A DNA stretch of 64,000 nt, from contig JAGOMJ010000002.1 of assembly GCA_017993615.1 (NCBI GenBank), forward strand, positions 13,508 through 77,507, given 5' to 3'. The notes under the pieces are model-generated. The model saw nothing but the letters and a program-made list of their open reading frames with translations, searched no databases and was not told the DNA's origin. This document shows, in pieces, positions 1 through 20,670 of the stretch. Position numbers and translations under genes: made by a program. Numbering within the stretch: the stretch's first letter is position 1; each line of letters starts with the position of its first letter. This stretch comes from Smithella sp. Lineage in GTDB: Bacteria > Desulfobacterota > Syntrophia > Syntrophales > Smithellaceae.

Positions 1-2934
1 GATAATGTCCAGCGCCACGGGGATCTGATCGTCATCCAGAAGGTTCACGATGGACAACGACGATATTTCATCTCTTGTATAACCGACCAGATCAAGGGCG
101 GCGGAATTTGCATCAAGGAACTGCCCGTCGAAACCGACGACGAAAACAAGATCGATCGATTGCTCAAAAAGGGCGTTATATCTCTCCTCAGTTTCTTTTA
201 ATTTATTCTCCGCCTGTTTGCGCTCGGTGATGTCGCGGGAAATGCCGCCGATAACGACATCGCCGTTTTCCAGCAGAACGGGAAATTTGGTTGATTCGTA
301 TATTTTATCGTGCAGCCTTTCTTCTACGACAACCGTCGATTTTGTTTGCACGACCCTGGTGTCGTTTTCCCGAAAGTAGTCGGCCGTTTCCGGCGGCATC
401 AGCTGGAAATCGTCCTTTCCGATGATGTCTTGCAGATTCATACCCAGAAGTTCTTCCATGGCCTGGTTTACCAGGATGTAGCGGAATCGGCTGTCTTTAA
501 GATAAACCATGGCAGAAGTGGCATTGATAAATGTGCGATAGCGTTCTTCGCTTTCCCGAAGGGCAATTTCCATGCGCTCCTGATCGCTAACGTCGCGCAG
601 AATCATGCTTGTTTTGAATTTCCCTGCGCTGTCCTGAAAAACGGATGTGCTCACATCCGCCGTAAAGCGTGTTCCGTCTTTCCGGAAATGAAACAGCCGG
701 CCGCTGAATTTACCGGTTCGGGCTCTCTCCGCCAGCAAAACCTCTAGACGGGGATCGGATGTATCCACCAGTCCTGTACGTCCGGATTCCAGGATCTCCT
801 GCTTTGTCCGGCCGAACATCCTGCAGGCCGCCGGGTTGGCATCAATAATCGAACCATCCGGTCGGGTCAGCAAAATGGCGTCCATCGAGTGATCAAACAG
901 CGAGTGATATTTCACTTCATTTTCCCGGATGGCTTCCTCGGCCTGTTTGCGTTCGGTGATATCCCTCCCGACGGCAAGAACCAGTTTTTCGCCGCCGATA
1001 TCGGTTTTCATCAACTGCATTTCCATCCAGAAATGTGTCCCGTCTTTCCTGCGGGCCAGCCATTCAAATTGTTGCGGCCCTTCCTGAATCGCTTTTTTGA
1101 TAAGTCTCAGCGCTTTTTCTTCCGTATCCGGTTCCGGATTGCCGCTTCCATCAGCGAAACTACACCTGAGTGCTTCTTCCTTTGAATTGTAGCCGTAAAT
1201 TCTGATCATTGAATCATTGACATCGATAATTTTTCCGGTTTCTGCATCGTGAATAAAAATGGCTTCCGATGTGGCGTTGAAAATTTCCCGGTATTTTTCC
1301 TCGCTCGCCTGCAGCATTTCCTCGGCCTGTTTGCGTTCGGTAATATCCCGGATCACACCTTTGAAACCGACGATATTGCCGGATGAATCCTTGCGCAGCA
1401 TAATCGAAGCTTCTATGGATATCCGGGAGCCGTCTTTTCTTTTTATCGGCCAGTCATAGCCTTCTGACGGCCGTTCTGTTTTATATACTCGGTTGAACGT
1501 TTGATAAACTTTCCGGGTGGTTTCGTCATTTGCCGAAAGGCGGCTGAAATTCATCCCCCTCAATTCGTCCCGGGAAAACCCCGACATCCGGCATACCGAA
1601 TCGTTGAAGAAGGTAAAATTGCCGGCCAGGTCCACTTCAAAATAGGCTTCGCGAATGGTTTCCAGAATATTGCGGTATTTTTCCTCGCTCCGGCGAAGCT
1701 CTTCCTCCGCTTTCTTGCGCTCGGTTCTATCCCGCACGATTCCGCGGAAGGCAATAACCTGACCTGCTGAATCTTTAATGGCCGATACGGAAGTGTCTAC
1801 ATACTTTTTTTGCCTCTCTTTTGTGAATATTTCGTATTCAAAATTATTTTCCGACCCACCTGTTTTGAAGATTTTGTTGTATACATCGAATACTTTCCGG
1901 GCGGTCTCTTCATCCATCATTTCCCGGTAGCGCATTTTCAACAATTCTTCTTTCGGATATCCGTCTATCCGGCAGAGCGCATCATTGACAAAGATGAAAT
2001 CGCCCTTCAGATTAAGCTCGGCGTATCCGTCTTCAATATTCTCGATGATGGCCCGGTACCGTTCCTCGCTCTCTCTCAGCTTGTCTTCAGCAAGTTTCCG
2101 GTCGCTGACATCCCGGCAGACAAACACGAACCCGAAGGGATTGCCCTTTTTGTCCCGAATGACATCGCCATTCACCTCAAAGGGAATTATCCTTCCGTCC
2201 TTCATAACGATTTTGTATTCATCGGGACCCAGCTTGCGATCAAGCATCAGTGCTGCGTTTTTCATCAGTCTTTCATGGTCGTCGGGAGCCGCAAACAAAA
2301 CCATGTTCCGGCCTTCAATTTCCTCCCGTTGATAACCGCTTATCCGGAGAGCGCGGTCATTGACGAACAGCACGGTGCCTTCCAGGCTGGTTCGAATAAC
2401 AACGTCCGGCATGGTATCAACCAGTCTTGCATATAACTCCCTGCTGTTGCGCAACGATTCAAGCGCGGCATCTTTCTGCAACTCCGCCACCCGCTGCCGG
2501 TCTCTTATTTTTGCCTCCGCCAGTTCCCGGGTGATTGCCGGACAAAGCCGGGACAGGTTGTTTTTCATCAAATAATCATGGGCTCCCATGCGCATGCACT
2601 CGGCGGCGGTTTCCTCGCCGATGGCTCCGGATGTGACGATGATGGGGATATTGAGTTTTGTCTGCTTTAACAGAGCGATGGCCGAAGGCGCACTGAATTT
2701 GGGCATTTTATAATCGCAAATGATGATGTCCCATTGCTTTTCCTCGAGGGCCTGCGTCATGGCGGCGGCGGTTTCGATGCGTTCATAGATCGGGGCAAAT
2801 CCGCCTTTTCTCATATGCCGTATGATCAGCAACACATCATCTTCCGAATCATCGATCATCAATGCCCGCAGTTTCTGCGGACCGCTGAAGTCCGATTCCA
2901 GCCCGATTGGTTGCGATATGTTTTTTCCCTTCAT
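1..2934 (-). CDS. REC receiver + tandem PAS-domain sensor protein (N-terminal 978 aa; C-terminus lies beyond the left edge)
   Basis: Not in the ORF track because it has no stop in the window. Own translation from ATG 2934 (GGAGAGG 6 nt upstream) gives MKGKNISQPIGLESDFSGPQKLRALMIDDSEDDVLLIIRHMRKGGF..CDYKMPKFSAPSAIALLKQ, a CheY-like REC. PAS modules follow, separated by RD(I/V)(T/S)(E/D)RK.AE linkers about every 375 bp. The frame stays open to nt 1. Confidence 0.8.
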   Translation of the reverse strand, partial: MKGKNISQPIGLESDFSGPQKLRALMIDDSEDDVLLIIRHMRKGGFAPIYERIETAAAMTQALEEKQWDIIICDYKMPKFSAPSAIALLKQTKLNIPIIVTSGAIGEETAAECMRMGAHDYLMKNNLSRLCPAITRELAEAKIRDRQRVAELQKDAALESLRNSRELYARLVDTMPDVVIRTSLEGTVLFVNDRALRISGYQREEIEGRNMVLFAAPDDHERLMKNAALMLDRKLGPDEYKIVMKDGRIIPFEVNGDVIRDKKGNPFGFVFVCRDVSDRKLAEDKLRESEERYRAIIENIEDGYAELNLKGDFIFVNDALCRIDGYPKEELLKMRYREMMDEETARKVFDVYNKIFKTGGSENNFEYEIFTKERQKKYVDTSVSAIKDSAGQVIAFRGIVRDRTERKKAEEELRRSEEKYRNILETIREAYFEVDLAGNFTFFNDSVCRMSGFSRDELRGMNFSRLSANDETTRKVYQTFNRVYKTERPSEGYDWPIKRKDGSRISIEASIMLRKDSSGNIVGFKGVIRDITERKQAEEMLQASEEKYREIFNATSEAIFIHDAETGKIIDVNDSMIRIYGYNSKEEALRCSFADGSGNPEPDTEEKALRLIKKAIQEGPQQFEWLARRKDGTHFWMEMQLMKTDIGGEKLVLAVGRDITERKQAEEAIRENEVKYHSLFDHSMDAILLTRPDGSIIDANPAACRMFGRTKQEILESGRTGLVDTSDPRLEVLLAERARTGKFSGRLFHFRKDGTRFTADVSTSVFQDSAGKFKTSMILRDVSDQERMEIALRESEERYRTFINATSAMVYLKDSRFRYILVNQAMEELLGMNLQDIIGKDDFQLMPPETADYFRENDTRVVQTKSTVVVEERLHDKIYESTKFPVLLENGDVVIGGISRDITERKQAENKLKETEERYNALFEQSIDLVFVVGFDGQFLDANSAALDLVGYTRDEISSLSIVNLLDDDQIPVALDII

Positions 2935-5397: not shown

Positions 5398-5407
5398 CGT
5401 TTACACC

Positions 5408-6259
5408 TCAACCGCGCGATTTGATAACCTGCTGGGCGGCCTGCTGTAGATCGGCGCTCTTTTTGAAAAGAACTCCCAGGAAAGGCACCCGGCCCTGATA
5501 AAGCGTTTTGGGTTTGAAATCCGGATCGCTCTTCAAAGCGCGAATCCAGTTGATGAGCTCCCGCGTCGCCGGTTTTTTCTCAACGCCCCGCAGCTCCCGC
5601 AAACGATAAAACGTGCTGATGCAGATTTTCATCAGCTCTTCATCGAGTTTGGGGAAGTGCACGGAAACAATCAGGCGCATCATATCGGGATCGGGAAACG
5701 CAATGTGATGAAAATTGCAGCGTCCGAGGAACGGATCGGAAAGATCCTTCTTGGCATTGGATGTAATGACGATCACGGGACGGTTCTTGGCCCGGATGGT
5801 TTTGTCGATTTCAATAATATCGAATTGCATCTGATCCAGAACGTCCAGCATATCGTCCTGAAAATCGGTGTCGGCCTTGTCGATTTCATCAATCAGTAAA
5901 ACGGTTTTTTTGTCGGCGGTGAAGGCCTGGCCGATCTTGCCCATTTTTATATAGGCTTCAATATCGCTGACATCGCGTTTGGAATCGCCGAAGCGGCTGT
6001 CGTTCAGACGCGTCAGTGTGTCGTACTGATAAAGCGCCTCAATTAATTTCATGCTCGACTTGACGTTCAAAACGATCAGCGGCATCTGCAGACTCTCGGC
6101 AATGGCGTGAGCCAGCATGGTTTTCCCCGTACCCGGTTCGCCCTTGAGCAAGAGGGGCATTTCCAGCGCCATGGAAACATTGACAATTTTTGCCAGTTCA
6201 TCGTCCAGAATATACTTGGATGCGCCGCCGAACCGGGAATTATTTTTTTCTGAAAGCAT
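5408..6259 (-). CDS. MoxR-like AAA+ ATPase (AAA_5 type, pair 1)
   Basis: Walker A GEPGTGKT, Walker B LLIDEIDKA, 283 aa. Confidence 0.8.
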   Translation of the reverse strand: MLSEKNNSRFGGASKYILDDELAKIVNVSMALEMPLLLKGEPGTGKTMLAHAIAESLQMPLIVLNVKSSMKLIEALYQYDTLTRLNDSRFGDSKRDVSDIEAYIKMGKIGQAFTADKKTVLLIDEIDKADTDFQDDMLDVLDQMQFDIIEIDKTIRAKNRPVIVITSNAKKDLSDPFLGRCNFHHIAFPDPDMMRLIVSVHFPKLDEELMKICISTFYRLRELRGVEKKPATRELINWIRALKSDPDFKPKTLYQGRVPFLGVLFKKSADLQQAAQQVIKSRG

Positions 6260-9013: not shown

Positions 9014-9784
9014 TTACTTTAGTTTTACGATAAATGAAAAACGGCTTTCCATCCAGGGATCCTTCTGCCCGTCAAAAACCTTCTCCGCAAACCGGATATG
9101 TCTGTTTTTCCCGATCAGCAAGACCGTCGACGACCTTGTACCGTAAACCGGACTTTCAATAAAAATGGAGGACAACAGTCTTTCCCATTCCAGACCGATT
9201 CCCGTGGAGGGAAGTTTTTGATCCGGAGGAATCCGACGGTCGGCCAGCATGGAAAACAATGCGTCTTCCAGAGCATCGCCTTTCTGCATCAGCGCGGTCT
9301 TGAGCATCCGTTTGCTTCTGGATACTTTCGGCCAGGGCGAATTCAAAAGATGATTGCTTAACCCATAGATGCCGGGTTTCAGCTTTTGCGCTTTTCCGCG
9401 ACTGGAAAAAACAAATACATCCCGTTTATCGCCAAGAAGCAGATTAAACCCGTTGTAGTTAAAAATATCCGAGGCAATCTTTTTCAGGTAGTTTCCCGGA
9501 TCTTTATTCCCGTTGAGGTAGCTGCTGACAAGCAGGCCGCGTGACAGTGCATTGCTTTTTAAGGAGGACGGGTCGCGATAATTCGTGACGGCAGCGAATC
9601 GCCCGTCTTTCGTTATGCCCAGCCACGTTCCGCCGCTTTTCAGATCGCGGCCGGCCAGCATCCGCGGATGATCTTTCCAGAAGCCCGCCGGCGATGACGG
9701 CCTTTCATAAAATTCATCGCGGTTGGCGGCCAGAACCAGCCTGTATGACGGATGCACATTATAGGCAAAAACGATCAGACACAT
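9014..9784 (-). CDS. NRDE family protein (DUF833 / TANGO2-like)
   Basis: N-terminal MCLIVF and LAANRDEFYERP (NRDE motif), 256 aa. Confidence 0.8.
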   Translation of the reverse strand: MCLIVFAYNVHPSYRLVLAANRDEFYERPSSPAGFWKDHPRMLAGRDLKSGGTWLGITKDGRFAAVTNYRDPSSLKSNALSRGLLVSSYLNGNKDPGNYLKKIASDIFNYNGFNLLLGDKRDVFVFSSRGKAQKLKPGIYGLSNHLLNSPWPKVSRSKRMLKTALMQKGDALEDALFSMLADRRIPPDQKLPSTGIGLEWERLLSSIFIESPVYGTRSSTVLLIGKNRHIRFAEKVFDGQKDPWMESRFSFIVKLK

Positions 9785-9806: not shown

Positions 9807-10574
9807 TCATGTCATGATTTCTTTTAATCGGGCGACGATTCTGCTCAGCGTATCTCCCGCCGGTGCATTGATGAATACGTCGGCGATATCGTTCTGTCCC
9901 GTCTGTCCCATATTCACAATGACGATCTTCGCCCCGGATTGTTTGGCATACAGCGGCATGTACGCCGCCGGATAAACCACCAGGGAAGAGCCGATCACCA
10001 TGAACAAATCGCATTTTTCGGATTCCTGCTCGGCCATCCTCAACGTATCCGGGGGCAGCATTTCACCGAAAAAAACAACTCCCGGTTTGAGCAACCCCGC
10101 ACATTTTTCGCAGATCGGAAAATGATCCGGTGAGGGATGCTTCTGCCTCATCATTTCCAGATCGTAGCGTTCAGCGCAGTCCAGGCAGACCAGCCACTGC
10201 ATATTGCCGTGCAGTTCATGAACCTTTTTCGGGTCATTCCCCGCCCGCTGGTGCAGATTGTCAATATTCTGCGTAATGATTGAACTTAACTTGTTCATCC
10301 TTTCCAATTCGGCAATCGCCAGATGCGCCCTGTTGGGTTGGGACGTGGTCATCAATCCGCCTTCCACCAGGTAGTACCAGACCTTTTTGCGCGTCTCGCC
10401 GGAACGCAAGTACCGGTCGATCGTGAAATCTTCGGGATCAACCTTCGTCCAGAGACCGTCGGGCCCTCTGAAATCCGGAATACCCGATTCCGTGCTGATG
10501 CCCGCTCCGGTAAAAATGACGGTTTTTTTCGATGCCGCGATCATTGCCGCGACCAGATTAATTTTTTCTTCCAT
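9807..10574 (-). CDS. cobB: NAD-dependent protein deacylase, Sir2 family
   Basis: GAGISTESGIPDFRGPDGLW, Zn-ribbon cysteines CLDC..CEKC, ELHGN. The start overlaps the tyrA stop by 17 nt. Confidence 0.85.
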   Translation of the reverse strand: MEEKINLVAAMIAASKKTVIFTGAGISTESGIPDFRGPDGLWTKVDPEDFTIDRYLRSGETRKKVWYYLVEGGLMTTSQPNRAHLAIAELERMNKLSSIITQNIDNLHQRAGNDPKKVHELHGNMQWLVCLDCAERYDLEMMRQKHPSPDHFPICEKCAGLLKPGVVFFGEMLPPDTLRMAEQESEKCDLFMVIGSSLVVYPAAYMPLYAKQSGAKIVIVNMGQTGQNDIADVFINAPAGDTLSRIVARLKEIMT

Positions 10575-11343
10575 GAACTTTTGCTGCCACCTTTGTTACA
10601 AATTCTGTTGATTCTTTTTTACCGCGCGTCCGGATAACCGCACGAATATCTTTCAATGCTTTTTCATAGATGTTCAGCATTTTAATGGTTTGAGAATTTC
10701 CCCGGATAATATCCAGATAGAGTTCGGGACTTTCCGTAAATACTTTTCGGATAATTTCCATTTTGATGCGAAAAATCGGCGTGGAAAATTTGTCGATGTC
10801 CGCAAAAGCCATTCCCGTCCTGGCAATAGCCAGCCCCAATACCATGGTATCGAGATGGTTGAGCGCCTGAACAACGGCCATCATGCGGTCATGTTTTTCG
10901 GGCGTTGATTCCCGGACGGCCATCTTGCTTCTTTTAAAAACGCCTTTCAGCCAGCCGAGCCATTTTTTTCCGCGCGCCGGACACAGGATTACGTTTTGTC
11001 CGGATACGTCTTTTAACTGCGGACCGAAAAGCGGATGACAGCCGATGACTTCCGCCTGCGACGTTTTCAGCATCCGCGTCACCGGTTCTTTTTTCAGCGA
11101 TGTCAAATCCATCAGAAGCTGATCCTTTGTCAGTTGCGGGCCGACCTGTCCGATGACTTCAGGCGTGGCGGAAATGGGCACAGCGACAACAACCACATCG
11201 CAGAGCCCGGCTAAATCGTTTATGTGCAACCGGGTTTTTCTGCCGCAGACATAAACCCGGCAGCCTTCTTTTTTCAGCAGGTCGGCAAACCACTTTCCCA
11301 TGCCGTTGGTGCCGCCGATAATGCCCACGTTAATTTTTTTCAT
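10558..11343 (-). CDS. tyrA: prephenate dehydrogenase
   Basis: IIGGTNGMGKW nucleotide fold, CHPLFGP, HDRMMAVVQALNH. Start trimmed to ATG 11343 (MKKINVGIIG), which forms an ATGA overlap with the aroC stop. Confidence 0.8.
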   Translation of the reverse strand: MKKINVGIIGGTNGMGKWFADLLKKEGCRVYVCGRKTRLHINDLAGLCDVVVVAVPISATPEVIGQVGPQLTKDQLLMDLTSLKKEPVTRMLKTSQAEVIGCHPLFGPQLKDVSGQNVILCPARGKKWLGWLKGVFKRSKMAVRESTPEKHDRMMAVVQALNHLDTMVLGLAIARTGMAFADIDKFSTPIFRIKMEIIRKVFTESPELYLDIIRGNSQTIKMLNIYEKALKDIRAVIRTRGKKESTEFVTKVAAKVHGRKN

Positions 11344-12416
11344 GATTGGATCGCTCTCTGTCTGAGGAAGTGATCGGCCACGACAATATTCACCATGGCT
11401 TCGCACACCGGCACAATACGGGGAAGAACGCAGATATCGTGCCTTCCCTGAATTTCAATGAACCGGGGTTTGCCTTTGCTGTCAATGGTGCGCTGCGGTT
11501 TCGCAATGGACGGAATAGGTTTACAATAAGCCCGCAGGACGATATGTTCTCCGTTCGTGATGCCCGCAAGAATTCCTCCCGCATGATTGGTTTTAAATCC
11601 TCCGGGCATTATTTCATCGTTGGTTTGAGAGCCCTGCAAACCGGCCATGGAGAATCCGTCACCCACTTCGACCGCTTTCACCGATCCGATGCTCATCAGG
11701 GCCTTGGCCAGATCGGCATCCATTTTGTCGAAAACCGGTTCGCCCAGCCCTCCGGGACAACCGCGGACGATAATTTCCACTATCCCGCCCAGGGAATCTC
11801 CTTTTTTACGGACGGCCGTAATTTTTCTTTCCATCCTGGCTGCCGCCTGTAGATCCGGACAAAAAAGAGCGTTTTCCTGCACGGCCGTTCTCAGCTTTTT
11901 TTCTGCGGCCATTCTGCCGCGGTCAATCGCGATGGAACCGATTGCCTTGGTATAGGCGATGACGTCGATACCGACCCGATCAAGTATCTTTGCTGCAATT
12001 GCTCCGGCGGCAACACGGGCGGCTGTTTCTCTGCCGGAAGCCCGTCCGCCGCCTCGCCAGTCGCGGATTCCGTATTTTTGCAAATAGGTAAAATCCCCCT
12101 GGCCGGGGCGGAAAACATTCTTCAATGCATCATAGGAAGAAGATTGCGCGTCAGCATTCCTGATGATGAGGGAGATCGGCGTACCGATCGTTTTACCCTC
12201 AAAAACGCCGGAGAGGATTTCCACGAGATCCCCCTCTTTTCGTGTAGTAGAGGCTACGGAGGCGGAAGGCTTTCGTCTGTCGAGAGCCTGCTGAATATCG
12301 GATTCCGTCAAGGGAATTCCCGGAAGACAGCCGTCCACGACGGCTCCCAGAGCCCTGCCGTGTGATTCTCCCCAGGTTGTGACGCGAAAAACGCTGCCTG
12401 TCGTATTGCCGGACAT
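11340..12416 (-). CDS. aroC: chorismate synthase
   Basis: 358 aa with the classic N-terminus GSVFRVTTWGESHG. Confidence 0.9.
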   Translation of the reverse strand: MSGNTTGSVFRVTTWGESHGRALGAVVDGCLPGIPLTESDIQQALDRRKPSASVASTTRKEGDLVEILSGVFEGKTIGTPISLIIRNADAQSSSYDALKNVFRPGQGDFTYLQKYGIRDWRGGGRASGRETAARVAAGAIAAKILDRVGIDVIAYTKAIGSIAIDRGRMAAEKKLRTAVQENALFCPDLQAAARMERKITAVRKKGDSLGGIVEIIVRGCPGGLGEPVFDKMDADLAKALMSIGSVKAVEVGDGFSMAGLQGSQTNDEIMPGGFKTNHAGGILAGITNGEHIVLRAYCKPIPSIAKPQRTIDSKGKPRFIEIQGRHDICVLPRIVPVCEAMVNIVVADHFLRQRAIQS

Positions 12417-12427
12417 TTTTTTCCTTT

Positions 12428-13000
12428 TTATTTTTTAATGACGGTTATTTTAGCCAAATTTCCCGATTTAAGCAAATACTGATAGATTTCTTCCGTAATC
12501 TGCTCGGGGGTTTTGCTCAGCGTATCCACAACATAATCCGCGGATCGCTCATACAGGGGAAATCTTTTTCTCATGGTGTCGATCGTCTCCTGAACAATGT
12601 TGCCGGATGTAAGCGGCGGACGCGTTGCTTCGTTTTGCGCATCCTGTTTTAACCGTTCCACAATGTCGCGCAGCGGAGCGTTGAGCCAGACCATGACACT
12701 GGCCTGTTTCAGCAGATCAACGTTCTGTTTCAATAGATCAACATTTTCTCTGAAGAGAACCACGCCGCCTCCGGTTGCAATAACACAATCTTCTTTCTTG
12801 ACAAGCGATTTGATGATGTCTCTTTCTTTTGACCGGAAATACTCCCATCCGTGAAGAGCGACGATTTCCTTAACCGGCATATCCATGCTTTCTTCGATCA
12901 TGGCATCGGTATCCCGGAAATCAACATTAAGCCGGGCAGCCAGCATCTTGCCGACGGTGGACTTGCCGGTCGCCCTGTAACCGATTAAAACAACCTTCAT
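12428..13000 (-). CDS. aroK: shikimate kinase
   Basis: Walker A GYRATGKST, GGGVV shikimate-binding motif, 190 aa. Confidence 0.85.
   Translation of the reverse strand: MKVVLIGYRATGKSTVGKMLAARLNVDFRDTDAMIEESMDMPVKEIVALHGWEYFRSKERDIIKSLVKKEDCVIATGGGVVLFRENVDLLKQNVDLLKQASVMVWLNAPLRDIVERLKQDAQNEATRPPLTSGNIVQETIDTMRKRFPLYERSADYVVDTLSKTPEQITEEIYQYLLKSGNLAKITVIKK
12704..12745 (-). repeat. in-frame 21-bp tandem duplication inside aroK (NVDLLKQ x2)
   Basis: ctgtttcagcagatcaacgtt / ctgtttcaatagatcaacatt. The 3 differences are all synonymous on the coding strand. Confidence 0.9.
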
Positions 13001-14253
13001 AAACGACGCAGCTCCTCCCAGAACGAGGGGAATGATTTATCAACGCACTTTTTATCGCGGATGTCAATCCCGGGAACAACAAGACCGGCTATCGCAAAGC
13101 TCATGGCCATGCGATGATCGTTATAGGTTTCGATTTTTGCCGGCCGCATGCGTCCGCCCTTTATGACAAGGCCGTCCGGAATTTCGCGGGCATCAATACC
13201 GGCCCGCCTAAGCTCGGTTGCGACAGCCGCCAGGCGATTGCTCTCTTTGATTCTCAGATGCGCGACATTGTTGATAACGGTCTGTCCCTCGCGAAAGGCG
13301 GACAAGACCGCCAGGGTCGGAACCATGTCCGGCATATCGCCGAAGTCGAAGACCCTATCGCCTTTCAACAGTGTTCCCCCGGTGACATCCACTCCGTTTG
13401 TGGTCGACCGGAACCGGCAGCCCAGTTTTTCCAGAACATCCAGCAGCCGGATGTCTCCCTGCCTGCTTTCCCGGCTGATTCCCTCAACCCGGATTGTTGT
13501 CTTGAGCAGGGCCGCCGCCAGAAAAAAATACGACGCGCTCGACGCATCTCCTTCGACAACATATCTGCGTCCCCGATAAGGCTCTCCGGCATTGACACGA
13601 TAGGCAAATCGCTCCGGTTTGCTGATGGTCACGCCAAAATCCTCCATAACAGCAATCGTCAGGTCAATATAGGGAGCTGAAACAACGCCGCCTTCCAGGC
13701 TCAGCTCTATTCCCCGGTCTGTATAGGGGGCGCATAAAAGAAGCGCTGACACGTATTGAGAACTTTCTATGTCACGCAGTGTTATTTTTCCCCCGGCGAG
13801 ACCGCCGGCATTGATCGTGACCGGCGGGCAATGATGATGTGTCCGAATATCGACGCCCATGTCCCTCAGGGCATCCCCGAGCGCACCCACCGGTCTTTCG
13901 CAGAGCCTTTTTTCGCCGGTCAGAACATATTGGCCTTTTCCGAGACAGACCAGGGCCGTCAGGAACCTCAGGGCAGTGCCGTTGTTGCCCAGAAACAGGT
14001 CCCTGCCGCTGTTTTCAATTTTGCCGGCCGTGCCGGTCACCTGAAAACCATCCGGCGCGTCGACAATTTTTGCGCCCAGTTCCCGCAACGCACCGATCAT
14101 GTAAAGGGTATCCTCAGAAACAAGCAGATTGCTGATCATGGAATCCCCCTGCGCCAGCGTTGCCGCAACCAGCGCCCGCTGGCTCAAGCTTTTTGATCCC
14201 GGAACGCGGACCGTCACAGCCGGGTCCGGGCAACGGATAGGATTATCGTCCAC
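12997..14253 (-). CDS. aroA: 3-phosphoshikimate 1-carboxyvinyltransferase (EPSP synthase)
   Basis: 418 aa with PGSKSLSQRAL and LGNNGTALRFL motifs. 4-nt overlap with aroK. Confidence 0.9.
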   Translation of the reverse strand: MDDNPIRCPDPAVTVRVPGSKSLSQRALVAATLAQGDSMISNLLVSEDTLYMIGALRELGAKIVDAPDGFQVTGTAGKIENSGRDLFLGNNGTALRFLTALVCLGKGQYVLTGEKRLCERPVGALGDALRDMGVDIRTHHHCPPVTINAGGLAGGKITLRDIESSQYVSALLLCAPYTDRGIELSLEGGVVSAPYIDLTIAVMEDFGVTISKPERFAYRVNAGEPYRGRRYVVEGDASSASYFFLAAALLKTTIRVEGISRESRQGDIRLLDVLEKLGCRFRSTTNGVDVTGGTLLKGDRVFDFGDMPDMVPTLAVLSAFREGQTVINNVAHLRIKESNRLAAVATELRRAGIDAREIPDGLVIKGGRMRPAKIETYNDHRMAMSFAIAGLVVPGIDIRDKKCVDKSFPSFWEELRRL

Positions 14254-15817
14254 CTTTGCTCAGCCTTTCCAGAATGATTTTTTTCATAACCGCATGCGGC
14301 GGTTCCTTGCCGGTCCATAACCGGAATTGCTCAGCGCCTTGATTAACAAACATTTCCACACCCGTTACAATGCGGCAACCCTGCTTTTCGGCATCCCTCA
14401 GCAATTTTGTTTTAATCGGATTATAGATCACATCCATGACGCAGTCGTAATCCGACAATACGGCGGCGCTGACCGGCGATTGATTTCCCCGGGGATACAT
14501 TCCCACGGGCGTTGTGTTGATCAGTACATCCCCCCTGATGCGGCCGATCTCGGAAAGCGGATAAAAAGCACACTGCATTTTTTCGGCAAGCATTTTCCCT
14601 TTTTTGGGGGTACGATTCACAATAACCGGACATCCACCCTCTTTCAGGATGCCGTAAGCCGCCGCCCGAGCGGTTCCGCCTGCGCCGACGATTACAATGG
14701 TTTTATGTCTGATCGTCATTGCCTTTTTAAGCGTCAAAATCAATCCGGCCCAATCCGTGTTATGTCCGATCAGACGGCCGTTTTCATTGACAATCGTATT
14801 CACCGCTCCGATCTCCAACGCATCCGCATCAATATCATCCAAATATTCCATCACGGCAACCTTGAAAGGAATGGTCACACTGGCGCCGTGAATATTCATC
14901 GCTCTCAACCCGTCCATTGCACCGCCGATATCCTGAACGCAAAAAGCGACATATTGTTCCGCAAGACCTGTTTTTTTCAGGGCTGCATCATGCATCACGG
15001 GAGACAGGCTCTGCTCGACCGGATTGCCCAGTAAAACGTAATGGCGGGGTAAAGACGCATGCGGAGATGACGCTGAGGACTGAGGGGCTCTGTTCTTGCC
15101 TTTAAACCATTTTTGAATCCGGTTCATCTCGTGAACGGTAAACTGGCCGGGGGCCGAGCGCCCGGTTCGGTCCAGTGCAGCAAAGCTCAGAAAGTTACCC
15201 ATCAGAGGCGCCACCGCGCGGCTGATGCCGCCTTTCTCGCCCATGCACAGCGAAATGATTTTTTGAGATTTCCTGCGCGCATAGGCAATAAGATTTAATA
15301 TGATAAGATTATCCTCTTCGGATCTCGCCGTTGTCACAATTTTCACAACTGCCGGCTTATACGCGGCACACCGATGAAATATTTTTTTCAATGTTGCAAG
15401 ATCCGGGGTGTCTTTCAGATGATGATAGGAAATTATCATCTTGGTTTGCGAACCTTTTTCCGCACACAACGCTTGCAGTTGCCGGATAGCCTGTGTTCCT
15501 TCGGCCAGCTCAATGTCAATATAATCCGCACCCCGTTCGACGGCCTCCTTCAGCAGCGCTATTTTATACCTCGTTTTGCTGCAGGCGTTTCGACGCCGCG
15601 GCCATCTTCCGACAAAAGCCGCCTCTTCTTTTTTCCGGCTGGTGACAATAATCTTTACTGCAGCAGACTCGGCACGAACGGCTGAAATCAATTCGGCAAG
15701 GCCGATATTGCCGATCAGATCCATTCTCAGTTCCAGAAAGTCGGCCAGCTGGCAGCTTCGTTCTATGGCATGCAAAGCCTCTTTGGGGTTGTCGGAGGTA
15801 ATGGGAATACAAATCAT
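14243..15817 (-). CDS. aroDE: fused type I 3-dehydroquinate dehydratase / shikimate 5-dehydrogenase
   Basis: The N-terminal half (MICIPIT..LELRMDL) is AroD type I. The C-terminal half (LLGNPVEQSLSPVMHD, VGAGGTARA) is AroE. Start trimmed to ATG 15817 (ATGA overlap with the pheA stop). Confidence 0.8.
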   Translation of the reverse strand: MICIPITSDNPKEALHAIERSCQLADFLELRMDLIGNIGLAELISAVRAESAAVKIIVTSRKKEEAAFVGRWPRRRNACSKTRYKIALLKEAVERGADYIDIELAEGTQAIRQLQALCAEKGSQTKMIISYHHLKDTPDLATLKKIFHRCAAYKPAVVKIVTTARSEEDNLIILNLIAYARRKSQKIISLCMGEKGGISRAVAPLMGNFLSFAALDRTGRSAPGQFTVHEMNRIQKWFKGKNRAPQSSASSPHASLPRHYVLLGNPVEQSLSPVMHDAALKKTGLAEQYVAFCVQDIGGAMDGLRAMNIHGASVTIPFKVAVMEYLDDIDADALEIGAVNTIVNENGRLIGHNTDWAGLILTLKKAMTIRHKTIVIVGAGGTARAAAYGILKEGGCPVIVNRTPKKGKMLAEKMQCAFYPLSEIGRIRGDVLINTTPVGMYPRGNQSPVSAAVLSDYDCVMDVIYNPIKTKLLRDAEKQGCRIVTGVEMFVNQGAEQFRLWTGKEPPHAVMKKIILERLSKGGR

Positions 15818-16896
15818 AGCGCATCCTCGCTTTTGGGATAGGACCCCAGAATCTTCATAAAAGACGTTTTGTTCTGCAGCTCTCGAAGACAACCCTGCAC
15901 ACGCCTGTCATCTGCATGGCCGATCATATCCACAAAGAAACTGTACTCCCATAATTTATCCTTCACGGGATGCGATTCAATCTTCGCCAGATTGATTTTC
16001 CGACGGGCAAAGGCGGACAGCGCGGCATGCAGCGCCCCCGGAGAATGCGGTGTGGCAAAAATCAGGGATGTTTTATCATTGCCGGTCGGATCGTTCGCAC
16101 CCTGACCGATTACGAGAAAACGCGTCATGTTGGAGGGATTATCCTCGATGCCTTCGGCCAGTAGATTCACGCCGTATATCTTTGCGGCAAGCGAACTCCC
16201 GATAGCGGCTTCATGCTTCTTTCCCCGGATCATCTGTACAGCGGCTGCCGTGCTTTCCGTTTCGCATACCACGCAGTTGGGAAGATTTGTTCTAACCCAC
16301 ACCTGGCACTGGGCCAACGCCTGCGGATGTGAATAAATTCTTTTGACCTCTTTCATGTTTTTGGCCGACGACATAAGACACTGACGGATTCGCAGATATA
16401 TCTCCGCCCTGATTTTCATCGGCGTTATCATCAGCCTGTCCAGGGTCACGTTGACCGATCCTTCCAGCGAATTTTCCACGGGCACGACACCCCAGTCAAT
16501 GGCACCCTTTTCCACCTCGTCAAAAACGCGGAATATTCCCGTCTGTGGAAAGAAGAGACTCGATTCACCGAAATGCAGGCGCGACGCCAGATGGGAAAAG
16601 GACGCCTCGGGTCCCAGAAAGGCAATCGTCATCGGCTTCTGCAAATCACGCGAGGCCGATATAATTTCCCTGAAAATCGCCGACACCGCCCCGGACGCAA
16701 GCGGTCCGGCATTGAGGTCCCGTAAATATCCGTGGACCTTCGCCTCCTGGGCCGGATCGTACACCTGCATCCCCCCCTGCCCCTTCATTTTGCCGATCTG
16801 AACGGATATCTGCGCCCGCTCGTTCAAAAGTCGGACAATCTCCTTATCCTTGTCTTTTATTTTTTTTCGCAAGTTTTCCAGCAGGTGCGGTTTCAT
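15814..16896 (-). CDS. pheA: chorismate mutase / prephenate dehydratase (P-protein)
   Basis: N-terminal chorismate mutase helix bundle (LRKKIKDKDKEIVRLLNERAQIS), PDT domain (IAFLGPEASFSH, TRFLVIG) and a C-terminal ACT-like region. Confidence 0.85.
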   Translation of the reverse strand: MKPHLLENLRKKIKDKDKEIVRLLNERAQISVQIGKMKGQGGMQVYDPAQEAKVHGYLRDLNAGPLASGAVSAIFREIISASRDLQKPMTIAFLGPEASFSHLASRLHFGESSLFFPQTGIFRVFDEVEKGAIDWGVVPVENSLEGSVNVTLDRLMITPMKIRAEIYLRIRQCLMSSAKNMKEVKRIYSHPQALAQCQVWVRTNLPNCVVCETESTAAAVQMIRGKKHEAAIGSSLAAKIYGVNLLAEGIEDNPSNMTRFLVIGQGANDPTGNDKTSLIFATPHSPGALHAALSAFARRKINLAKIESHPVKDKLWEYSFFVDMIGHADDRRVQGCLRELQNKTSFMKILGSYPKSEDAL

Positions 16897-17987
16897 GATT
16901 TCATATCCTCGATCACGTCGGCAATCATTTTCTGCTCGATATTGCCATGAATAAAGGGCAACCCTATTTTTTTCAGCAGCACAAAATGAATCGCGGCTCC
17001 TTTTCTCTTTTTATCCATCTTCAATTGTGCCACAATTTTTCCGCCGGACAGCGTTTTCGGTATTCTCGTGGGAAGGCCCGCCTGATCAATGAGGGTTTCG
17101 ATACGGCCGGCCTCGTTGTTTTTCAGATAACCCATCCTGGCGGAAAGTCGCGCGGCCGCCACCATCCCAATCGCCACGCCTTCTCCATGGGTAATCGCAT
17201 ACCCGGAAACGGCTTCCAGCGAATGACCGATCGTATGGCCGAAATTTAAAATACGACGCACGCCCCCTTCTTTTTCATCAATTTCCACAATTGATTTTTT
17301 GATCTGACAACATTTTTCGACGACACCGAGCAGTATTTTGGGGTCCTTGGATTTGACCGCCGTCATGATGTCTTCCAGGCTGGCGAACATTTTTTCATCA
17401 TCAATCACCCCGTATTTTATAATTTCCGCCAGCCCGTTGTTGAATTCTTTTGGAGGCAGCGTATTGAGAAAATGCAGGCTCGTCATGACCGCCTGCGGCT
17501 GATAAAAAGTCCCCGCCAGATTTTTTCCGCAAGGAAGGTCCACGCCGGTTTTACCGCCTATACTGCTGTCCACCTGCGCAACCAGCGTTGTCGGAATCTG
17601 GATATACGGTACGCAACGCATATAGATCGAGGCAACGAAACCGGCAATATCTCCGACAACGCCGCCGCCCAGAGCAATCAGACATGTCTCCCGGTCAGCG
17701 CCGGAGACCGCTAATGTTTCGGCAATGTCAACAACCGTTTTGATGGTTTTTGAGGACTCTCCCGCAGGAAAATCAATCAACGACGCGTTGAGGCCGATCT
17801 CTTTTAGCGCCGTCAGAAATTTTTTACCGTAAAGTTCCCCGACAATATTGTCCGTAATGACCGCATAACGTGCCGCCTTATGGTTTTTGGCGATCAGCAG
17901 CGACAGACGATCCGATATGTCTTTTCCGATACGGATTTCGTAAGAGGAGGATGATTTTCTGTCCAGGTTAACTTTTATCGATCTCAT
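16893..17987 (-). CDS. aroB: 3-dehydroquinate synthase
   Basis: 364 aa with LGGGVVGDIAGF and FGHTIGHSLE. Confidence 0.9.
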   Translation of the reverse strand: MRSIKVNLDRKSSSSYEIRIGKDISDRLSLLIAKNHKAARYAVITDNIVGELYGKKFLTALKEIGLNASLIDFPAGESSKTIKTVVDIAETLAVSGADRETCLIALGGGVVGDIAGFVASIYMRCVPYIQIPTTLVAQVDSSIGGKTGVDLPCGKNLAGTFYQPQAVMTSLHFLNTLPPKEFNNGLAEIIKYGVIDDEKMFASLEDIMTAVKSKDPKILLGVVEKCCQIKKSIVEIDEKEGGVRRILNFGHTIGHSLEAVSGYAITHGEGVAIGMVAAARLSARMGYLKNNEAGRIETLIDQAGLPTRIPKTLSGGKIVAQLKMDKKRKGAAIHFVLLKKIGLPFIHGNIEQKMIADVIEDMKS

Positions 17988-18017
17988 GATGTCTTCCCTT
18001 CACTATAAAATGTTCTT

Positions 18018-19028
18018 CTAGTGTTTCATGATTGCGGTAATGGCCCGTATTTCGTCCATCATCTGATAGAACTTTTCCGGTTTAAGTGACTGAGCGCCGT
18101 CGGAAACTGCTTTCTCGGGCTCCGGATGAACTTCAACGATAATGCCGTCCGCACCCACAGCAACCGCTGCCCGCGACAGGGGAATGACGTATTTCCAGTT
18201 CCCGGCGGCATGACTGGGGTCGATGATGACCGGCAGATGGGTTAATCCTTTCAAAACAGGTATGGCACTGATATCCAGCGTATTTCTCGTGGCCGTTTCA
18301 AACGTCCGGATACCGCGTTCACACAGAATCACATTGGGATTGCCTTCGGAGAGTATGTATTCCGCCGACATCAGCAACTCTTCAATCGTGGTCATCATAC
18401 CCCGCTTCAACAGCACCGGTTTTCGCGAATGACCGACTTTTTTTAACAGGGCGAAATTCTGCACATTGCGGGCGCCGATCTGCAGCATATCGGCGTAAGA
18501 TTCCACCAGATCGACATCCGCCGGATTGACGACCTCTGTCACCGTCGGCAAACCGGCCTGAGTGCCGACCTTGTTCAAGACCTTCAGGCCCTCTTCCTCC
18601 ATCCCCTGAAAGCTGTAAGGCGACGTGCGAGGCTTATAGGCACCGCCTCTCAGAATCTGCGCACCGCCTTTTTTGACGACATAGGCCGACTCCAGCAACT
18701 GTTCTTCACTTTCAATCGCGCAGGGTCCGGCCATGACCACAAATTCCGGGCCACCGACGGTCACCTCTCCTACCGTCACCTCCGTATTACCATCATGCGA
18801 TTCCCGACTGGCCAGTTTGTAGGGTTTCAAAATGGGCATGGTCTTTTCCACACCAGGCAGGGATTCCGCAAATTTCAGAATATCCTTACCCCGATTGTCA
18901 CCCACCGCTCCGATGATCGCCCTTTCCACCCCGATGGAAGGATGGGCCTTGTATCCGACGGATTCAATCCAGTGAATCACATCTTCAATCTGTTTTTCGG
19001 TCGCATGACTTTTCATGACGATAATCAT
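18018..19028 (-). CDS. aroF: 3-deoxy-7-phosphoheptulonate (DAHP) synthase, type I-beta, with an N-terminal ferredoxin-like regulatory domain
   Basis: 336 aa. An ~70-aa N-terminal extension (MIIVMKSHATEKQIEDVIHWIES) resembles the Thermotoga-type enzymes. Core motifs are GPCAIESEEQ, KPRTSPYSFQG and IIDPSH. RBS AAAGGAGG. Confidence 0.85.
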   Translation of the reverse strand: MIIVMKSHATEKQIEDVIHWIESVGYKAHPSIGVERAIIGAVGDNRGKDILKFAESLPGVEKTMPILKPYKLASRESHDGNTEVTVGEVTVGGPEFVVMAGPCAIESEEQLLESAYVVKKGGAQILRGGAYKPRTSPYSFQGMEEEGLKVLNKVGTQAGLPTVTEVVNPADVDLVESYADMLQIGARNVQNFALLKKVGHSRKPVLLKRGMMTTIEELLMSAEYILSEGNPNVILCERGIRTFETATRNTLDISAIPVLKGLTHLPVIIDPSHAAGNWKYVIPLSRAAVAVGADGIIVEVHPEPEKAVSDGAQSLKPEKFYQMMDEIRAITAIMKH

Positions 19029-19048
19029 ATTGCCTCCTTTGAAATTAA

Positions 19049-19117
19049 AAAGCCAGGGGTCTGCACGCCCTGGCTTTCTAAAAAAAAAGCCATGAGCGCT
19101 TTCGATCCGCCCATGGC
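19049..19117 (-). promoter_or_regulatory. two tandem terminator-like hairpins in the aroF 5' leader (putative attenuator)
   Basis: On the minus strand: GCCATGGGCG-gatcgaaag-CGCTCATGGC followed by T9 (19117-19080), then AAAGCCAGGG-cgtgcagac-CCCTGGCTTT followed by TTAATTT (19077-19041). They end about 10 nt before the aroF RBS. Confidence 0.6.
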
Positions 19118-19136
19118 TGTTTTGGTTTACTGAACC

Positions 19137-19232
19137 TTAACGAGTCCTCCTCAGCGACGGGCAGACCGATATAAAATAGGTATAAAACCAGTAACCGCAA
19201 ACATTCATATTTACATTCTGTTTTCTGTCCAT
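19137..19232 (-). CDS. putative aro-operon leader peptide (31 aa, too short for the ORF track)
   Basis: Own translation: MDRKQNVNMNVCGYWFYTYFISVCPSLRRTR. AGGA lies 8 nt upstream of the ATG. Six aromatic codons (Y W F Y . Y F) fall in 7 positions. The ORF sits between a sigma70-like promoter and the hairpins. Confidence 0.5.
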   Translation of the reverse strand: MDRKQNVNMNVCGYWFYTYFISVCPSLRRTR

Positions 19233-19260
19233 CGTGAGATTCCTGTCTTTGTTTGTACGC

Positions 19261-19289
19261 TTTCTAATGAACCTGACACTATTTGTCAA
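19261..19289 (-). promoter_or_regulatory. sigma70-like promoter for the aro leader/operon
   Basis: Minus strand reads TTGACA - 17 nt - TAGAAA. The leader ATG starts 29 nt downstream of the -10 element. Confidence 0.45.
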
Positions 19290-19404
19290 GCCTTTTTTTA
19301 TTGCATGATCGTCGTGATGAAAAAAGGGAGGGGCGTCTTACTGCGGCAGGCCATCCTTCCGATCAGGTTTCAAGCCTGCATTGTCATGAAGAAGAAATAT
19401 AAAG

Positions 19405-19432
19405 GAGCCCCGAAAAGTGATCCCCGGGGCTC
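19405..19432 (-). terminator. intrinsic terminator after ompA
   Basis: GAGCCCCG-12 nt loop-CGGGGCTC followed by CTTTATATTTCTTC on the minus strand, 30 nt after the ompA stop. Confidence 0.5.
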
Positions 19433-19462
19433 TTTTATGTTGAAACGATTTATAATCCTTCT

Positions 19463-20443
19463 TTACTTTTCGATGATATAATCAACCGCAGCTTCCACGC
19501 GACGGTTTTTCGCACGCCCATCGGCCGTATCGTTTGTATCGACGGGTCTCTCATCGCCAAAGCCTTTTGCCTCGATCCGGGCGGCATCGACACCGCCTTT
19601 TTCGACCATGTATTTTTTAACAGTTTCGGCGCGTTTTTGAGAGAGCTTCTTATTATATTCAGCCTTTCCCACATTATCCGTATGTCCTTCGATGACCACA
19701 TTCAATTCCGGATAATCTTTCATCACTTCAACCAGCGCATCGATGTCTTTATAATAACCGTCCTGAATGGTTGCTTTATCAAAATCAAATTTGACATCCA
19801 GGGTCTGTCTTCCCTTCTCAATGATAACCGGCTTGGCAACCGGAGCAGGTGGCGGAGGAGGAGGCAGGGGCTCTTCAACCTTTGTTTCTACAATCTTTTT
19901 CTCGCCGCCAAAGGCGAAGGTGAGGCCGACCGAGTAAAGCAGGTTGTTGTATCGCTCGTTAAATGGAATGATATGACGGACATCGGCTCTCAATGCAATA
20001 TTGTCCGTAACAAAATATTTGAAGCCGGCTCCGTAATCGAGAGCAAATTTATCCCGGTTATCCGGATCCTCGGGAAGCGCATCATAATGAATACCACCTA
20101 CCCCTACAGCAAAAAAGGGAACAAAGCGGCTTTCGGGCATAAAATGATAAAGCCCTTCCAGACCGTATCCGAAGAGTTCCATTTCATTGTCGTCATTCCA
20201 GTCTTTGTTATTGGTCGGAACATAATTAAAAAATGCTTCCACACCGATATTTTTTGTAAAATTGTAACCGGCGCGCAAACCGGCAGCGTAGGTGTCTTCA
20301 TTATTATCATATTCATTACCTTCAAAGACATAGCCTCCGATGAAAGGGGTTACTGAAAAAGAACCTGCCTTAACTTCAGCCTGCGCCACTGTGGCAAAAG
20401 CCAACAGCACCAAGATCCAAACAAACGATAGTGCTTTTTTCAT
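19463..20443 (-). CDS. OmpA-family outer membrane protein (beta-barrel + Pro-rich linker + OmpA_C peptidoglycan-binding domain)
   Basis: Signal peptide MKKALSFVWILVLLAFATVAQA, alternating barrel strands, PLPPPPPPAP hinge, C-terminal GHTDNVG..YNKKLSQKRA. Confidence 0.85.
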   Translation of the reverse strand: MKKALSFVWILVLLAFATVAQAEVKAGSFSVTPFIGGYVFEGNEYDNNEDTYAAGLRAGYNFTKNIGVEAFFNYVPTNNKDWNDDNEMELFGYGLEGLYHFMPESRFVPFFAVGVGGIHYDALPEDPDNRDKFALDYGAGFKYFVTDNIALRADVRHIIPFNERYNNLLYSVGLTFAFGGEKKIVETKVEEPLPPPPPPAPVAKPVIIEKGRQTLDVKFDFDKATIQDGYYKDIDALVEVMKDYPELNVVIEGHTDNVGKAEYNKKLSQKRAETVKKYMVEKGGVDAARIEAKGFGDERPVDTNDTADGRAKNRRVEAAVDYIIEK

Positions 20444-20670
20444 AACGTCCTCCTTAAATATTGATCATAAAGATCATTAGACTGTGAAAACGATTTTTAT
20501 TCCACCTGATTACGATATTCTTGATAACGCTTACTCCCCGACATTGTTTTTATGAAAGTATAATTATTTCATATATGTAAGTCAAGCGAATTCAGGCTTC
20601 AACATCCGCAAGACACAACGCGCCTCATCCTGTAATGTCACTAGATCTCTGCTTTCCGAACAGATTTTTT

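Follow-up and report, generated by a model that had tools for sequence, protein, structure and literature searches.

The leader and the aro operon in the Smithella window

A 64,000-nucleotide stretch of Smithella sp. DNA (contig JAGOMJ010000002.1, positions 13,508 to 77,507; hereafter the window) carries on its minus strand an operon for aromatic amino-acid biosynthesis (the aro operon), which is preceded by a leader of ~230 nt between its promoter and the gene for DAHP synthase (DAHPS). The leader contains a short open reading frame (ORF) with a run of aromatic codons and two successive terminators, T1 and T2. On the sequence and comparative evidence presented here, the element is very probably a ribosome-mediated (leader-peptide) transcription attenuator of the operon. 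It is best explained as a device that would sense charged Tyr, Trp and Phe tRNAs and control DAHPS, aroB, pheA, aroDE, aroA, aroK, aroC and tyrA. An earlier note on this DNA, made from its letters alone, had suggested ribosome-mediated attenuation through a leader that mixes aromatic codons, a reading which the comparative evidence supports. All positions follow the numbering of the whole window, and the minus strand was read directly between 18700 and 19600.

The leader promoter (19261-19300) consists of an A/T-rich upstream stretch, a -35 element TTGACA (19289-19284), a 17-nt spacer and a -10 element TAGAAA (19266-19261). It is followed by a Shine-Dalgarno (SD)-like AGGA (19241-19244), which lies 8 nt 5′ of the leader ATG at 19232, and by the leader ORF of 31 codons plus a stop codon (19137-19232; TAA at 19139-19137), which reads MDRKQNVNMNVCGYWFYTYFISVCPSLRRTR. 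Six of the seven codons in the putative regulatory run Y14 W15 F16 Y17 T18 Y19 F20 (19173-19193) are aromatic. These clustered codons match the products of the controlled operon, which comprises the shikimate pathway together with pheA and tyrA. The promoter, the ORF with its AGGA and aromatic run, and two stem-loops with U tracts before the DAHPS gene had all been described in the earlier note, and direct reading found each of them where it had placed them. The promoter and the two stem-loops had not been reported by the generic scans, as the promoter scan requires a T at position 6 of the -10 element, which TAGAAA does not have, and the terminator scan allows loops of 3-8 nt, a limit exceeded by the 9-nt loops of T1 and T2.

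The leader was divided into six segments, which offer the five successive pairings 1:2, 2:3, 3:4, 4:5 and 5:6. Segment 1a, CUCACGAUGGACAGA (19224-19238), covers the end of the SD spacer, the start codon and codons 2-3, and in free RNA it pairs with the 3′ portion of segment 2. The latter, UCGGUCUGCCCGUCGCUGAG (19150-19169), is located in the 3′ part of the ORF, and its core (19169-19157) is the antiterminator partner of segment 3. T1 (19080-19117) is formed by segment 3 (19117-19102, 5′ arm and loop) and segment 4 (19098-19089, 3′ arm), followed by a U9 tract (19088-19080). Its arms are GCCATGGGCG (19117-19108) and CGCTCATGGC (19098-19089), then T9 in the DNA; the pairing is also given as GCCAUGGGCG/CGCUCAUGGC, then nine U. 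T2 (19042-19079) is formed by segment 5 (19079-19066) and segment 6 (19058-19049) with a U-rich tail (19048-19042). Its arms are AAAGCCAGGG (19077-19068) and CCCTGGCTTT (19058-19049), then TTAATTT, or AAAGCCAGGG/CCCUGGCUUU followed by UUAAUUU when written as RNA.

The DAHPS gene, together with its ribosome binding site (RBS) AAAGGAGG (19040-19033), occupies 18018-19040 on the minus strand and starts at an ATG at 19028. It is the first structural gene, and its product has an N-terminal regulatory domain. The window protein was assigned to NCBIfam PRK08673 (E = 1.8e-152), and its homologues carry Pfam PF18152 and PF00793. The rest of the operon (10558-17987, minus strand) encodes, by NCBIfam assignment, aroB, chorismate mutase/prephenate dehydratase (pheA), an aroD-aroE fusion, aroA, aroK, aroC and prephenate dehydrogenase (tyrA), and the ORF coordinates show that these genes abut or overlap. 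On the other side of the leader lies an OmpA-like gene (20443-19463, minus strand), which has a terminator of its own at 19432-19405, as found by the generic terminator scan.

Conservation of the element across Syntrophales

The decisive evidence that the element is not a product of chance is its conservation between related sequences. Relatives were collected by a DAHPS protein scan with one genome per species, and 80 loci were kept of the at least 569 relatives found. These loci belong to Smithella, Smithellaceae, Syntrophaceae, Syntrophus or Syntrophales metagenome-assembled genomes, and their DAHPS proteins are 75-91% identical. A search for homologous proteins with DAHPS gave only matches of at least 80% identity, and its phylogenetic range did not reach further than that of the genome scan.

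The element was present in 79 of the 80 loci, and the remaining one (L046) has only 15 nt of upstream sequence; every locus with adequate sequence therefore carries it. The earlier note had let its claim depend on the ORF and its aromatic run being kept in relatives, and this search clearly found them kept. A first scan had already detected a leader ORF with an aromatic run in 71 of the 80 loci, located 110-130 nt (sometimes ~200-270 nt) upstream of DAHPS. Other loci showed variant arrangements: one leader has a non-ATG start (L042), and four truncated contigs (L015, L027, L035 and L051) still display the 3′ part of the element. In three Smithella loci (L009, L014 and L025) the leader and terminators were located 1.2 kb upstream of DAHPS, with an HMGL-like gene inserted between. 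This gene, which in L009 spans 5005-5970 and has equivalents in the other two, encodes a 321-aa protein of the HMGL-like (PF00682) aldolase family; given its position between the attenuator and DAHPS, it would be placed under aromatic attenuation control.

The element is always found between a conserved CTTGACA promoter and the operon. CTTGACA is invariant among the 68 aligned relatives, where it follows an A/T-rich stretch and is followed in most cases by a TATAxx -10 element 17 nt downstream, and the sequence upstream of the promoter is not conserved. Neither the window nor ~1 Mb of related loci contained a second copy of the scaffold.

These observations bear directly on the explanation that the ORF arose by chance and that the terminators merely end the upstream OmpA-like gene, with no regulatory role. 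Within the window alone, the aromatic stretch has weak significance, as two six-frame stretches with at least six aromatic codons in seven were found against 0.14-0.45 expected. However, the OmpA-like gene is followed by a terminator of its own and is separated from the ORF by a conserved promoter, and nearly all loci keep the element, in contrast to the sequence upstream of the promoter. The range of DAHPS identities further shows that the loci are not near-identical strains. This explanation is already refuted by the conservation and retains a negligible probability. For annotation, T1 and T2 should accordingly not be taken as the end of the ompA-like gene, nor the aro operon as promoterless.

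The leader peptide and its aromatic codons

The leaders of the relatives comprise 72 distinct sequences, which were aligned with MAFFT; the alignment was not fitted to any structure. All results on leaders given below refer to this set unless the window is named. An ORF of 27-37 codons was identified in all 72 leaders, and 65 of them have a purine-rich SD-like triplet between positions -16 and -4. The window leader carries six aromatic codons, and its relatives mostly carry 7-8 (range 5-10), including one conserved Trp codon. The run averages 4.0 Tyr, 2.6 Phe and 1.0 Trp codons in the relatives, with exactly one Trp in 66 of 72. When the leaders were anchored on this Trp codon, positions -3, -1, 0, +1, +2, +4 and +5 were aromatic in 76-100% of cases. 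The comparison thus establishes both the ORF and its codon bias.

The way in which the run varies is informative about what is selected. Tyr and Phe codons interchange freely, and TAT, TAC, TTT and TTC are all in use. These swaps and synonymous codons indicate selection for an aromatic codon rather than for a particular nucleotide string. The opposite pattern was observed downstream of the run. In three leaders (L034, L036 and L038) a 1-nt indel shifts the reading frame (CIGLPVDEEDLLR) while the nucleotides GGTCTGCCCGT are kept, which indicates that the C-terminal '...VCPSLRR' is conserved as RNA and not as peptide.

The ORF might also be considered to encode a small peptide, hydrophobic or aromatic, with a function of its own, or a TnaC-like nascent-peptide sensor of free amino acids in place of a sensor of tRNA charging, since its length and its N-terminus (MDRK/MNRQ) are conserved and the peptide has an aromatic core. 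Several observations speak against it. The C-terminal third is not kept as peptide in the frame-shifted variants, the N-terminal codons overlap segment 1a, which pairs with segment 2, and the free exchange of Tyr and Phe fits a need for any aromatic codon rather than for a specific peptide. In addition, none of eight leader peptides was found as a predicted protein by exact look-up in a collection of 15 billion proteins, and the ORF is embedded in a terminator/antiterminator system. We therefore regard a peptide with a function of its own as extremely improbable.

Terminators and alternative pairings

The five successive pairings were compared across the 72 leaders. In the window, the whole leader has a minimum free energy (MFE) of -75.4 kcal/mol, which corresponds to z = -4.66 against shuffles, folded without any ribosome mask. 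Both terminators are strongly supported by the relatives. In the helices of T1 and T2, 96% of the cells were paired, compared with 21-53% in slid controls, and 11 pairs showed compensatory changes; 69 cells had changed on both sides against 19.9 ± 3.4 expected, a value reached in none of 500 shuffles. T1 has 12 pairs (94% paired, five pairs with compensatory changes) and T2 has 10 pairs (98.3% paired, six pairs with compensatory changes). At least five U were found in the 8 nt after the T1 stem in 70 of 72 relatives, and a U tract follows T2 in 71 of 72 leaders. The T1 hairpin of the window has an energy of -19.4 kcal/mol. The two stem-loops of the earlier note are thereby shown to covary and to have the form of intrinsic terminators.

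The competing helix 2:3 was found in the MFE fold of the window, where UCGGUCUGCCCGU (19169-19157) pairs with AUGGGCGGAUCGA (19114-19102) over 13 bp. This complementarity between the ORF and hairpin 1 had been described as partial in the earlier note and proved stronger than it had claimed. Across the leaders 95.1% of its cells were paired, compared with 28-42% in slid controls, mostly with one-sided changes between G-U, G-C and A-U. Such one-sided wobble changes are expected, because one strand must serve two partners. The helix 4:5, in which the 3′ arm of hairpin 1 pairs with the 5′ arm of hairpin 2 as the earlier note had suggested, had 91.5% of its cells paired against 28-42% in slid controls, with four pairs changed on both sides. 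The alternative partner of segment 5 is formed by segment 4 together with the T1 U tract.

Pairing 1:2, a putative protector/pause helix that would keep segment 2 sequestered as long as no ribosome stalls, was seen in two parts. The helix 1b:2a joins codons 7-8 to those that directly follow the run (columns 62-66 of the alignment with 115-119) and encloses the aromatic codons. It had 72.7% of cells paired against 29-57% in slid controls and 75 compensatory cells against 28 expected, which none of 500 shuffles reached, and it was also present in the RNAalifold structure. The helix 1a:2b joins the SD/AUG/codons 2-3 region with GUCUGCCCGUCG; 87% of its cells were paired against 26-49% in slid controls, and it is weaker in the MNR-type leaders. 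The pairing of segment 1a with segment 2 was also seen when the window leader was folded up to T1.

The energies agree with this chain of alternatives. The median duplex energies were -12.9 kcal/mol for 1:2, -22.2 for 2:3, -21.5 for 3:4, -20.4 for 4:5 and -22.3 for 5:6, compared with medians of -7 to -11 kcal/mol for shuffled partners (-11.3 for the shuffled partner of 2:3). The non-adjacent pairs 2:4, 2:5, 2:6, 1:3 and 1:4 were at background, and 3:5 was above it (-13.6). As hairpins, the medians were -25.9 kcal/mol for 2..3, -20.4 for T1, -20.1 for 4..5 and -21.3 for T2, all of which are nearly equal; in the window, the 4..5 hairpin has -18.2 and T2 -19.9 kcal/mol. Taken over the leaders, the comparative analysis thus establishes the alternative pairings from 2:3 to 5:6 and points to 1:2 as a fifth.

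Segments 2 and 3 are almost invariant, beyond the needs of a helix alone. This would be expected if a trans-acting factor, such as a TRAP- or PyrR-type RNA-binding protein, an uncharged tRNA or a small molecule, bound the conserved segments GGUCUGCC and GCCAUGGG and selected the terminator or antiterminator, with the ORF being incidental. It would also fit with the equilibrium models of ribosome position given below, which flip a minority of sequences. The near-invariance is, however, explained by the fact that each segment pairs with two partners, and an RNA that binds a protein or ligand would not need the conserved ORF, SD, length and aromatic identity at seven codon positions. Moreover, Rfam gave no T-box or riboswitch match even at E <= 10, and the leader sequence has no TRAP-like (G/U)AG repeats. 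A trans-acting factor is thus quite improbable as the main regulator, if marginally less so than a functional peptide.

Ribosome position and the proposed mechanism

Leader-peptide attenuation requires that the position of the ribosome be coupled to the choice of RNA structure, and the geometry established by the comparison allows this. The start of segment 2 lies 5 nt beyond the last aromatic codon. When the A site of the ribosome holds one of the first five aromatic codons, among which are Tyr/Phe, Trp and Phe codons, segment 2 is fully exposed; once the ribosome has passed the run, segment 2 lies inside it. Translation of the ORF, actual termination and read-through, and the kinetic order of events described here are inferred.

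In the proposed mechanism, the conserved sigma-70-type promoter would drive transcription of the leader, in which T1 (3:4) and T2 (5:6) stand directly before the DAHPS RBS. When charged aromatic tRNAs are plentiful, the ribosome would pass the aromatic codons into and beyond segment 2. Segment 2 would then be held inside the ribosome or re-paired with segment 1, meaning the initiation region and codons 7-8, leaving segment 3 free to pair with segment 4 so that T1 terminates. Transcripts leaking past T1 would still hold 3:4, allowing 5:6 to form and T2 to terminate. When any of Tyr-, Trp- or Phe-tRNA is scarce, the ribosome would stall within the run, 5-20 nt short of segment 2, and the free segment 2 would capture the emerging segment 3 in the 13-bp antiterminator. 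The unpaired segment 4 could then pair with the emerging segment 5, leaving segment 6 with no partner. Neither terminator would form, and RNA polymerase would read into DAHPS-aroB-pheA-aroDE-aroA-aroK-aroC-tyrA.

The leader was folded with and without ribosome masking, as the earlier note had suggested, and in the window T1 flips when a stall is modelled. The first mask model covered everything 5′ of the ribosome. It gave a probability of T1, P(T1), of 0.02/0.01 in the stalled states compared with 1.00 at the stop codon, and lowered T2 to 0.35-0.38 from 1.00. This cruder model was replaced by one that masks only the ribosomal footprint. Under the footprint mask, P(T1) in the window was 1.00 with no ribosome, where 1:2 forms, 1.00 with a ribosome in segment 2 and 0.98 with a ribosome at the stop codon. 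It fell to 0.02 with the lead ribosome on the Trp codon and the initiation region occupied.

Several results weigh against attenuation by this route and constrain how it could work. When a stall is modelled, T1 flips at equilibrium in no more than about 35-40% of the 72 sequences. In the remaining ones T1 is thermodynamically favoured, which means that kinetic (co-transcriptional) control must be assumed; the classical trp attenuator likewise depends on kinetic control. With the footprint-only mask, segment 1a pairs with segment 2 around the stalled ribosome and P(T1) in the window is 1.0. For antitermination, a following ribosome would thus have to occupy the initiation region, or this region would have to be sterically excluded. 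The helix 1a:2b itself varies little and shows almost no covariation. Finally, segment 2 makes its last base pair 18 nt before the stop codon, so that a ribosome at the stop codon does not cover the segment, and the replete state must rely either on a ribosome being inside segment 2 in time or on renewed pairing of 1:2.

The role of the second terminator

T2 may be more than a second copy of T1. We infer a possible six-segment relay, in which one stalling decision is passed from 2:3 to the freed segment 4, from there to 4:5, and so to the disabling of 5:6, along equally stable helices. This part of the proposal is considerably less secure than attenuation at T1, and we hold it with slightly more doubt than belief.

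Four lines of evidence support the relay. The 4..5 and 5..6 hairpins are equally stable. The T2 loop has a conserved GGC (columns 256-258 of the alignment) that is complementary to distal segment 4, with 86.8% of cells paired against 18-51% in slid controls. In most loci only ~10-25 nt separate the end of T2 from the RBS, which leaves no room for another promoter, so that expression of the operon must pass both terminators. Lastly, leaders L032 and L049 have kept the T1 hairpin and lost its U tract (UUAAAGAG and UUAUGAGU, respectively), and their T2 is intact. It follows that T2 must be regulated in these two leaders, via the 3:4 / 4:5 / 5:6 relay. The converse variant is L080, which keeps T1 and has lost the T2 U tract, its T2 hairpin being degenerate.

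Other observations count against the relay. A palindrome, GCCATGGC (also given as GCCAUGGC), is common to all four terminator arms, so that duplication of a terminator would by itself account for part of the 4:5 complementarity. For 4:5, compensatory changes give modest support, at 11 cells against 3.5 ± 2.1, a value reached in 8 of 500 shuffles. When segments 4-6 are folded alone, T2 usually beats 4:5 at equilibrium, with a mean P(T2) of 0.81 and T2 ahead in 83% of sequences. These points, together with the above-background energy of the 3:5 duplex and the formation of T2 at equilibrium in about 90% of sequences even in the stalled models, would be expected of an ordinary attenuator with a passive back-up. 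There only T1 would be regulated (2:3 against 3:4), T2 would be a duplicated constitutive fail-safe that lowers expression, and 4:5 would be a by-product of the shared palindromic stem. However, a strong constitutive terminator directly before an essential biosynthetic operon would severely cap its expression, and the conserved loop GGC with its pairing to distal segment 4 is not needed by T2 itself. The 4..5 hairpin is also as stable as T2 by its median and forms first during transcription, and in L032 and L049 T2 is the sole terminator and must be regulated. A passive T2 is therefore rather unlikely.

If the relay is real, T2 would remove only those transcripts that have leaked past T1 with 3:4 formed and would spare the antiterminated ones, which amounts to proofreading that multiplies the dynamic range. 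In L032 and L049, T1 would then be a pure relay hairpin and T2 the only terminator.

Comparison with known attenuators

An Rfam scan of 18000-20500 at E <= 10 gave no match to Phe_leader, Trp_leader, His_leader, Leu_leader, Thr_leader or T-box, and a scan of 11 related loci at gathering scores gave no match. Weak matches to MicC, TEG147 and others were rejected as chance matches to the terminator hairpins. The leader would work in the manner of these leader families but is not a member of any Rfam sequence family.

The classical pheL (Phe_leader) and trpL (Trp_leader) attenuation of E. coli is summarised in PMC11802643. The Syntrophales leader shares with these systems the end-product codons in a short ORF, an intrinsic terminator before the first gene, and the mutually exclusive pairings 1:2 / 2:3 / 3:4 in which a stalled ribosome frees segment 2. 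It differs in mixing Tyr, Trp and Phe codons, whereas each of the E. coli leaders is devoted to a single amino acid, and in controlling the common shikimate pathway with the Phe and Tyr branches and not a single branch. The regulatory codons are located in the loop between segments 1 and 2 and not inside segment 1. The ORF also runs 18 nt beyond segment 2, so that a ribosome at the stop codon, which covers segment 2 in trp, does not do so here. There are two terminators and six segments, the lineage is Syntrophales and not Gammaproteobacteria, and no similarity of sequence or structure is detectable by Rfam.

A leader that reads codons for several amino acids has precedents in E. coli. The thr (Thr and Ile) and ilvGMEDA (Leu, Val and Ile) leaders contain codons for several amino acids, and a shortage of any of these relieves termination (OR logic). 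The Syntrophales leader is multivalent in the same manner, but it would sense other amino acids, thr and ilv have a single terminator, and the sequences are unrelated.

The earlier note knew of no described case in this lineage. That part held, as a literature search found no leader-peptide attenuator described for the aro operon of Syntrophus, Smithella or deltaproteobacteria, and a search for tandem terminators combined with an attenuator and a leader peptide found nothing. Leader-peptide control of DAHP synthase is, however, already known in other bacteria. The closest case is the Corynebacterium glutamicum aroR leader, which precedes the aroF (DAHP synthase) operon; as PMC11802643 relates from Neshat et al. 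2014, it contains Phe-Tyr-Phe, and stalling there enhances transcription. It is reported there to respond to Phe and not to Tyr. By this description aroR is likewise a mixed aromatic leader peptide before a DAHP synthase operon, with three aromatic codons and, as described, no Trp, compared with six including Trp in the window. It belongs to a different phylum (Actinobacteria) and precedes an operon of different content, and an independent origin is likely given the phylogenetic distance.

Further predictions are related. In Acholeplasma, uORFC-13-1 is a Phe-codon upstream ORF directly before a terminator stem and aroF, for which attenuation was proposed (Brewer et al. 2021, PMC8632094). It comes from Mollicutes and has a U run that codes for at least one Phe, not a mixture of Tyr, Trp and Phe codons; its structure is different, and the Rfam scan of window positions 18000-20500 gave no match to it. 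Leader-peptide control of E. coli aroF is itself an old hypothesis in the literature. The Merino database predicted terminator/antiterminator attenuators, from structure only, before aromatic supraoperons in several phyla, including Desulfovibrio vulgaris, Bacteroides thetaiotaomicron, Thermus and others (PMC1173090, Table 7). These predictions resemble the present case in placing attenuation before large tyrA-containing aromatic clusters, including one in a sulfate-reducing deltaproteobacterium, but they come with no described leader peptide, none is from Syntrophales and the operons differ (PMC1173090). What is new here is the lineage, a balanced Tyr/Trp/Phe leader over the common pathway with pheA and tyrA, the codons in the 1-2 loop and the conserved six-segment, two-terminator layout.

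The element is a variant of a well-known kind of regulator, a solid and useful finding with no conceptual surprise, which the relay and proofreading at T2 could change if confirmed. It provides an unannotated, order-wide regulatory element for the Syntrophales, which are syntrophic fatty-acid and alkane degraders of methanogenic communities and in which gene regulation is almost unstudied. It suggests that a single leader peptide can integrate the supply of Tyr, Trp and Phe for the committed step, the common pathway as a whole and two branches. With 72 distinct sequences and covariation, the element is ready to be put forward as an Rfam family of its own. If the relay is real, the five-helix, two-terminator chain would be a simple natural design for sharpening an attenuator response and could be reused in synthetic biology.

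Further observations in the window and related loci

Two other candidates in the window were rejected. A second aromatic-rich stretch at ~35390-35440 on the minus strand (FYCFFFYGFY, at least 6/7 aromatic) is out of frame within a membrane-protein gene, and a GCCATGG pair at 513/462 on the minus strand lies inside a PAS-domain coding region; both were attributed to chance.

The best database match of the window DAHPS, in the genome set searched and in the protein homologue search, is only 90% identical, which points to a Smithella-like species with no close representative in that genome set. The AroD-AroE fusion is a single 549-aa ORF (14243-15892, minus strand) with a TTG start; it overlaps the end of the pheA gene by ~80 nt, and its true start is therefore uncertain. 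At the other end of the operon, a gene for a Sir2/CobB-type NAD-dependent protein deacylase (9807-10574, minus strand) overlaps the end of the prephenate dehydrogenase gene and is followed by another ORF (9014-9784, minus strand). These two reading frames may be part of the aro transcript.

When the window leader is folded at full length, its MFE structure pairs the T1 U9 tract with the DAHPS RBS region AAAGGAGG, which extends the T2 hairpin (19029-19090, minus strand). Such a pairing could occlude the RBS in some conformers. Eight relatives (L022, L062, L064, L065, L066, L068, L071 and L079) have insertions of 100-160 nt between T2 and the DAHPS RBS. Five of these loci (L022, L062, L064, L068 and L079) were scanned with Rfam, and no match at gathering score was obtained. 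Some of the insertions contain GC-rich inverted repeats, for example CCCGCCGCAAGCGGAGGG, and they could be small mobile or repetitive extragenic palindrome (REP)-like elements, or further regulatory RNA.

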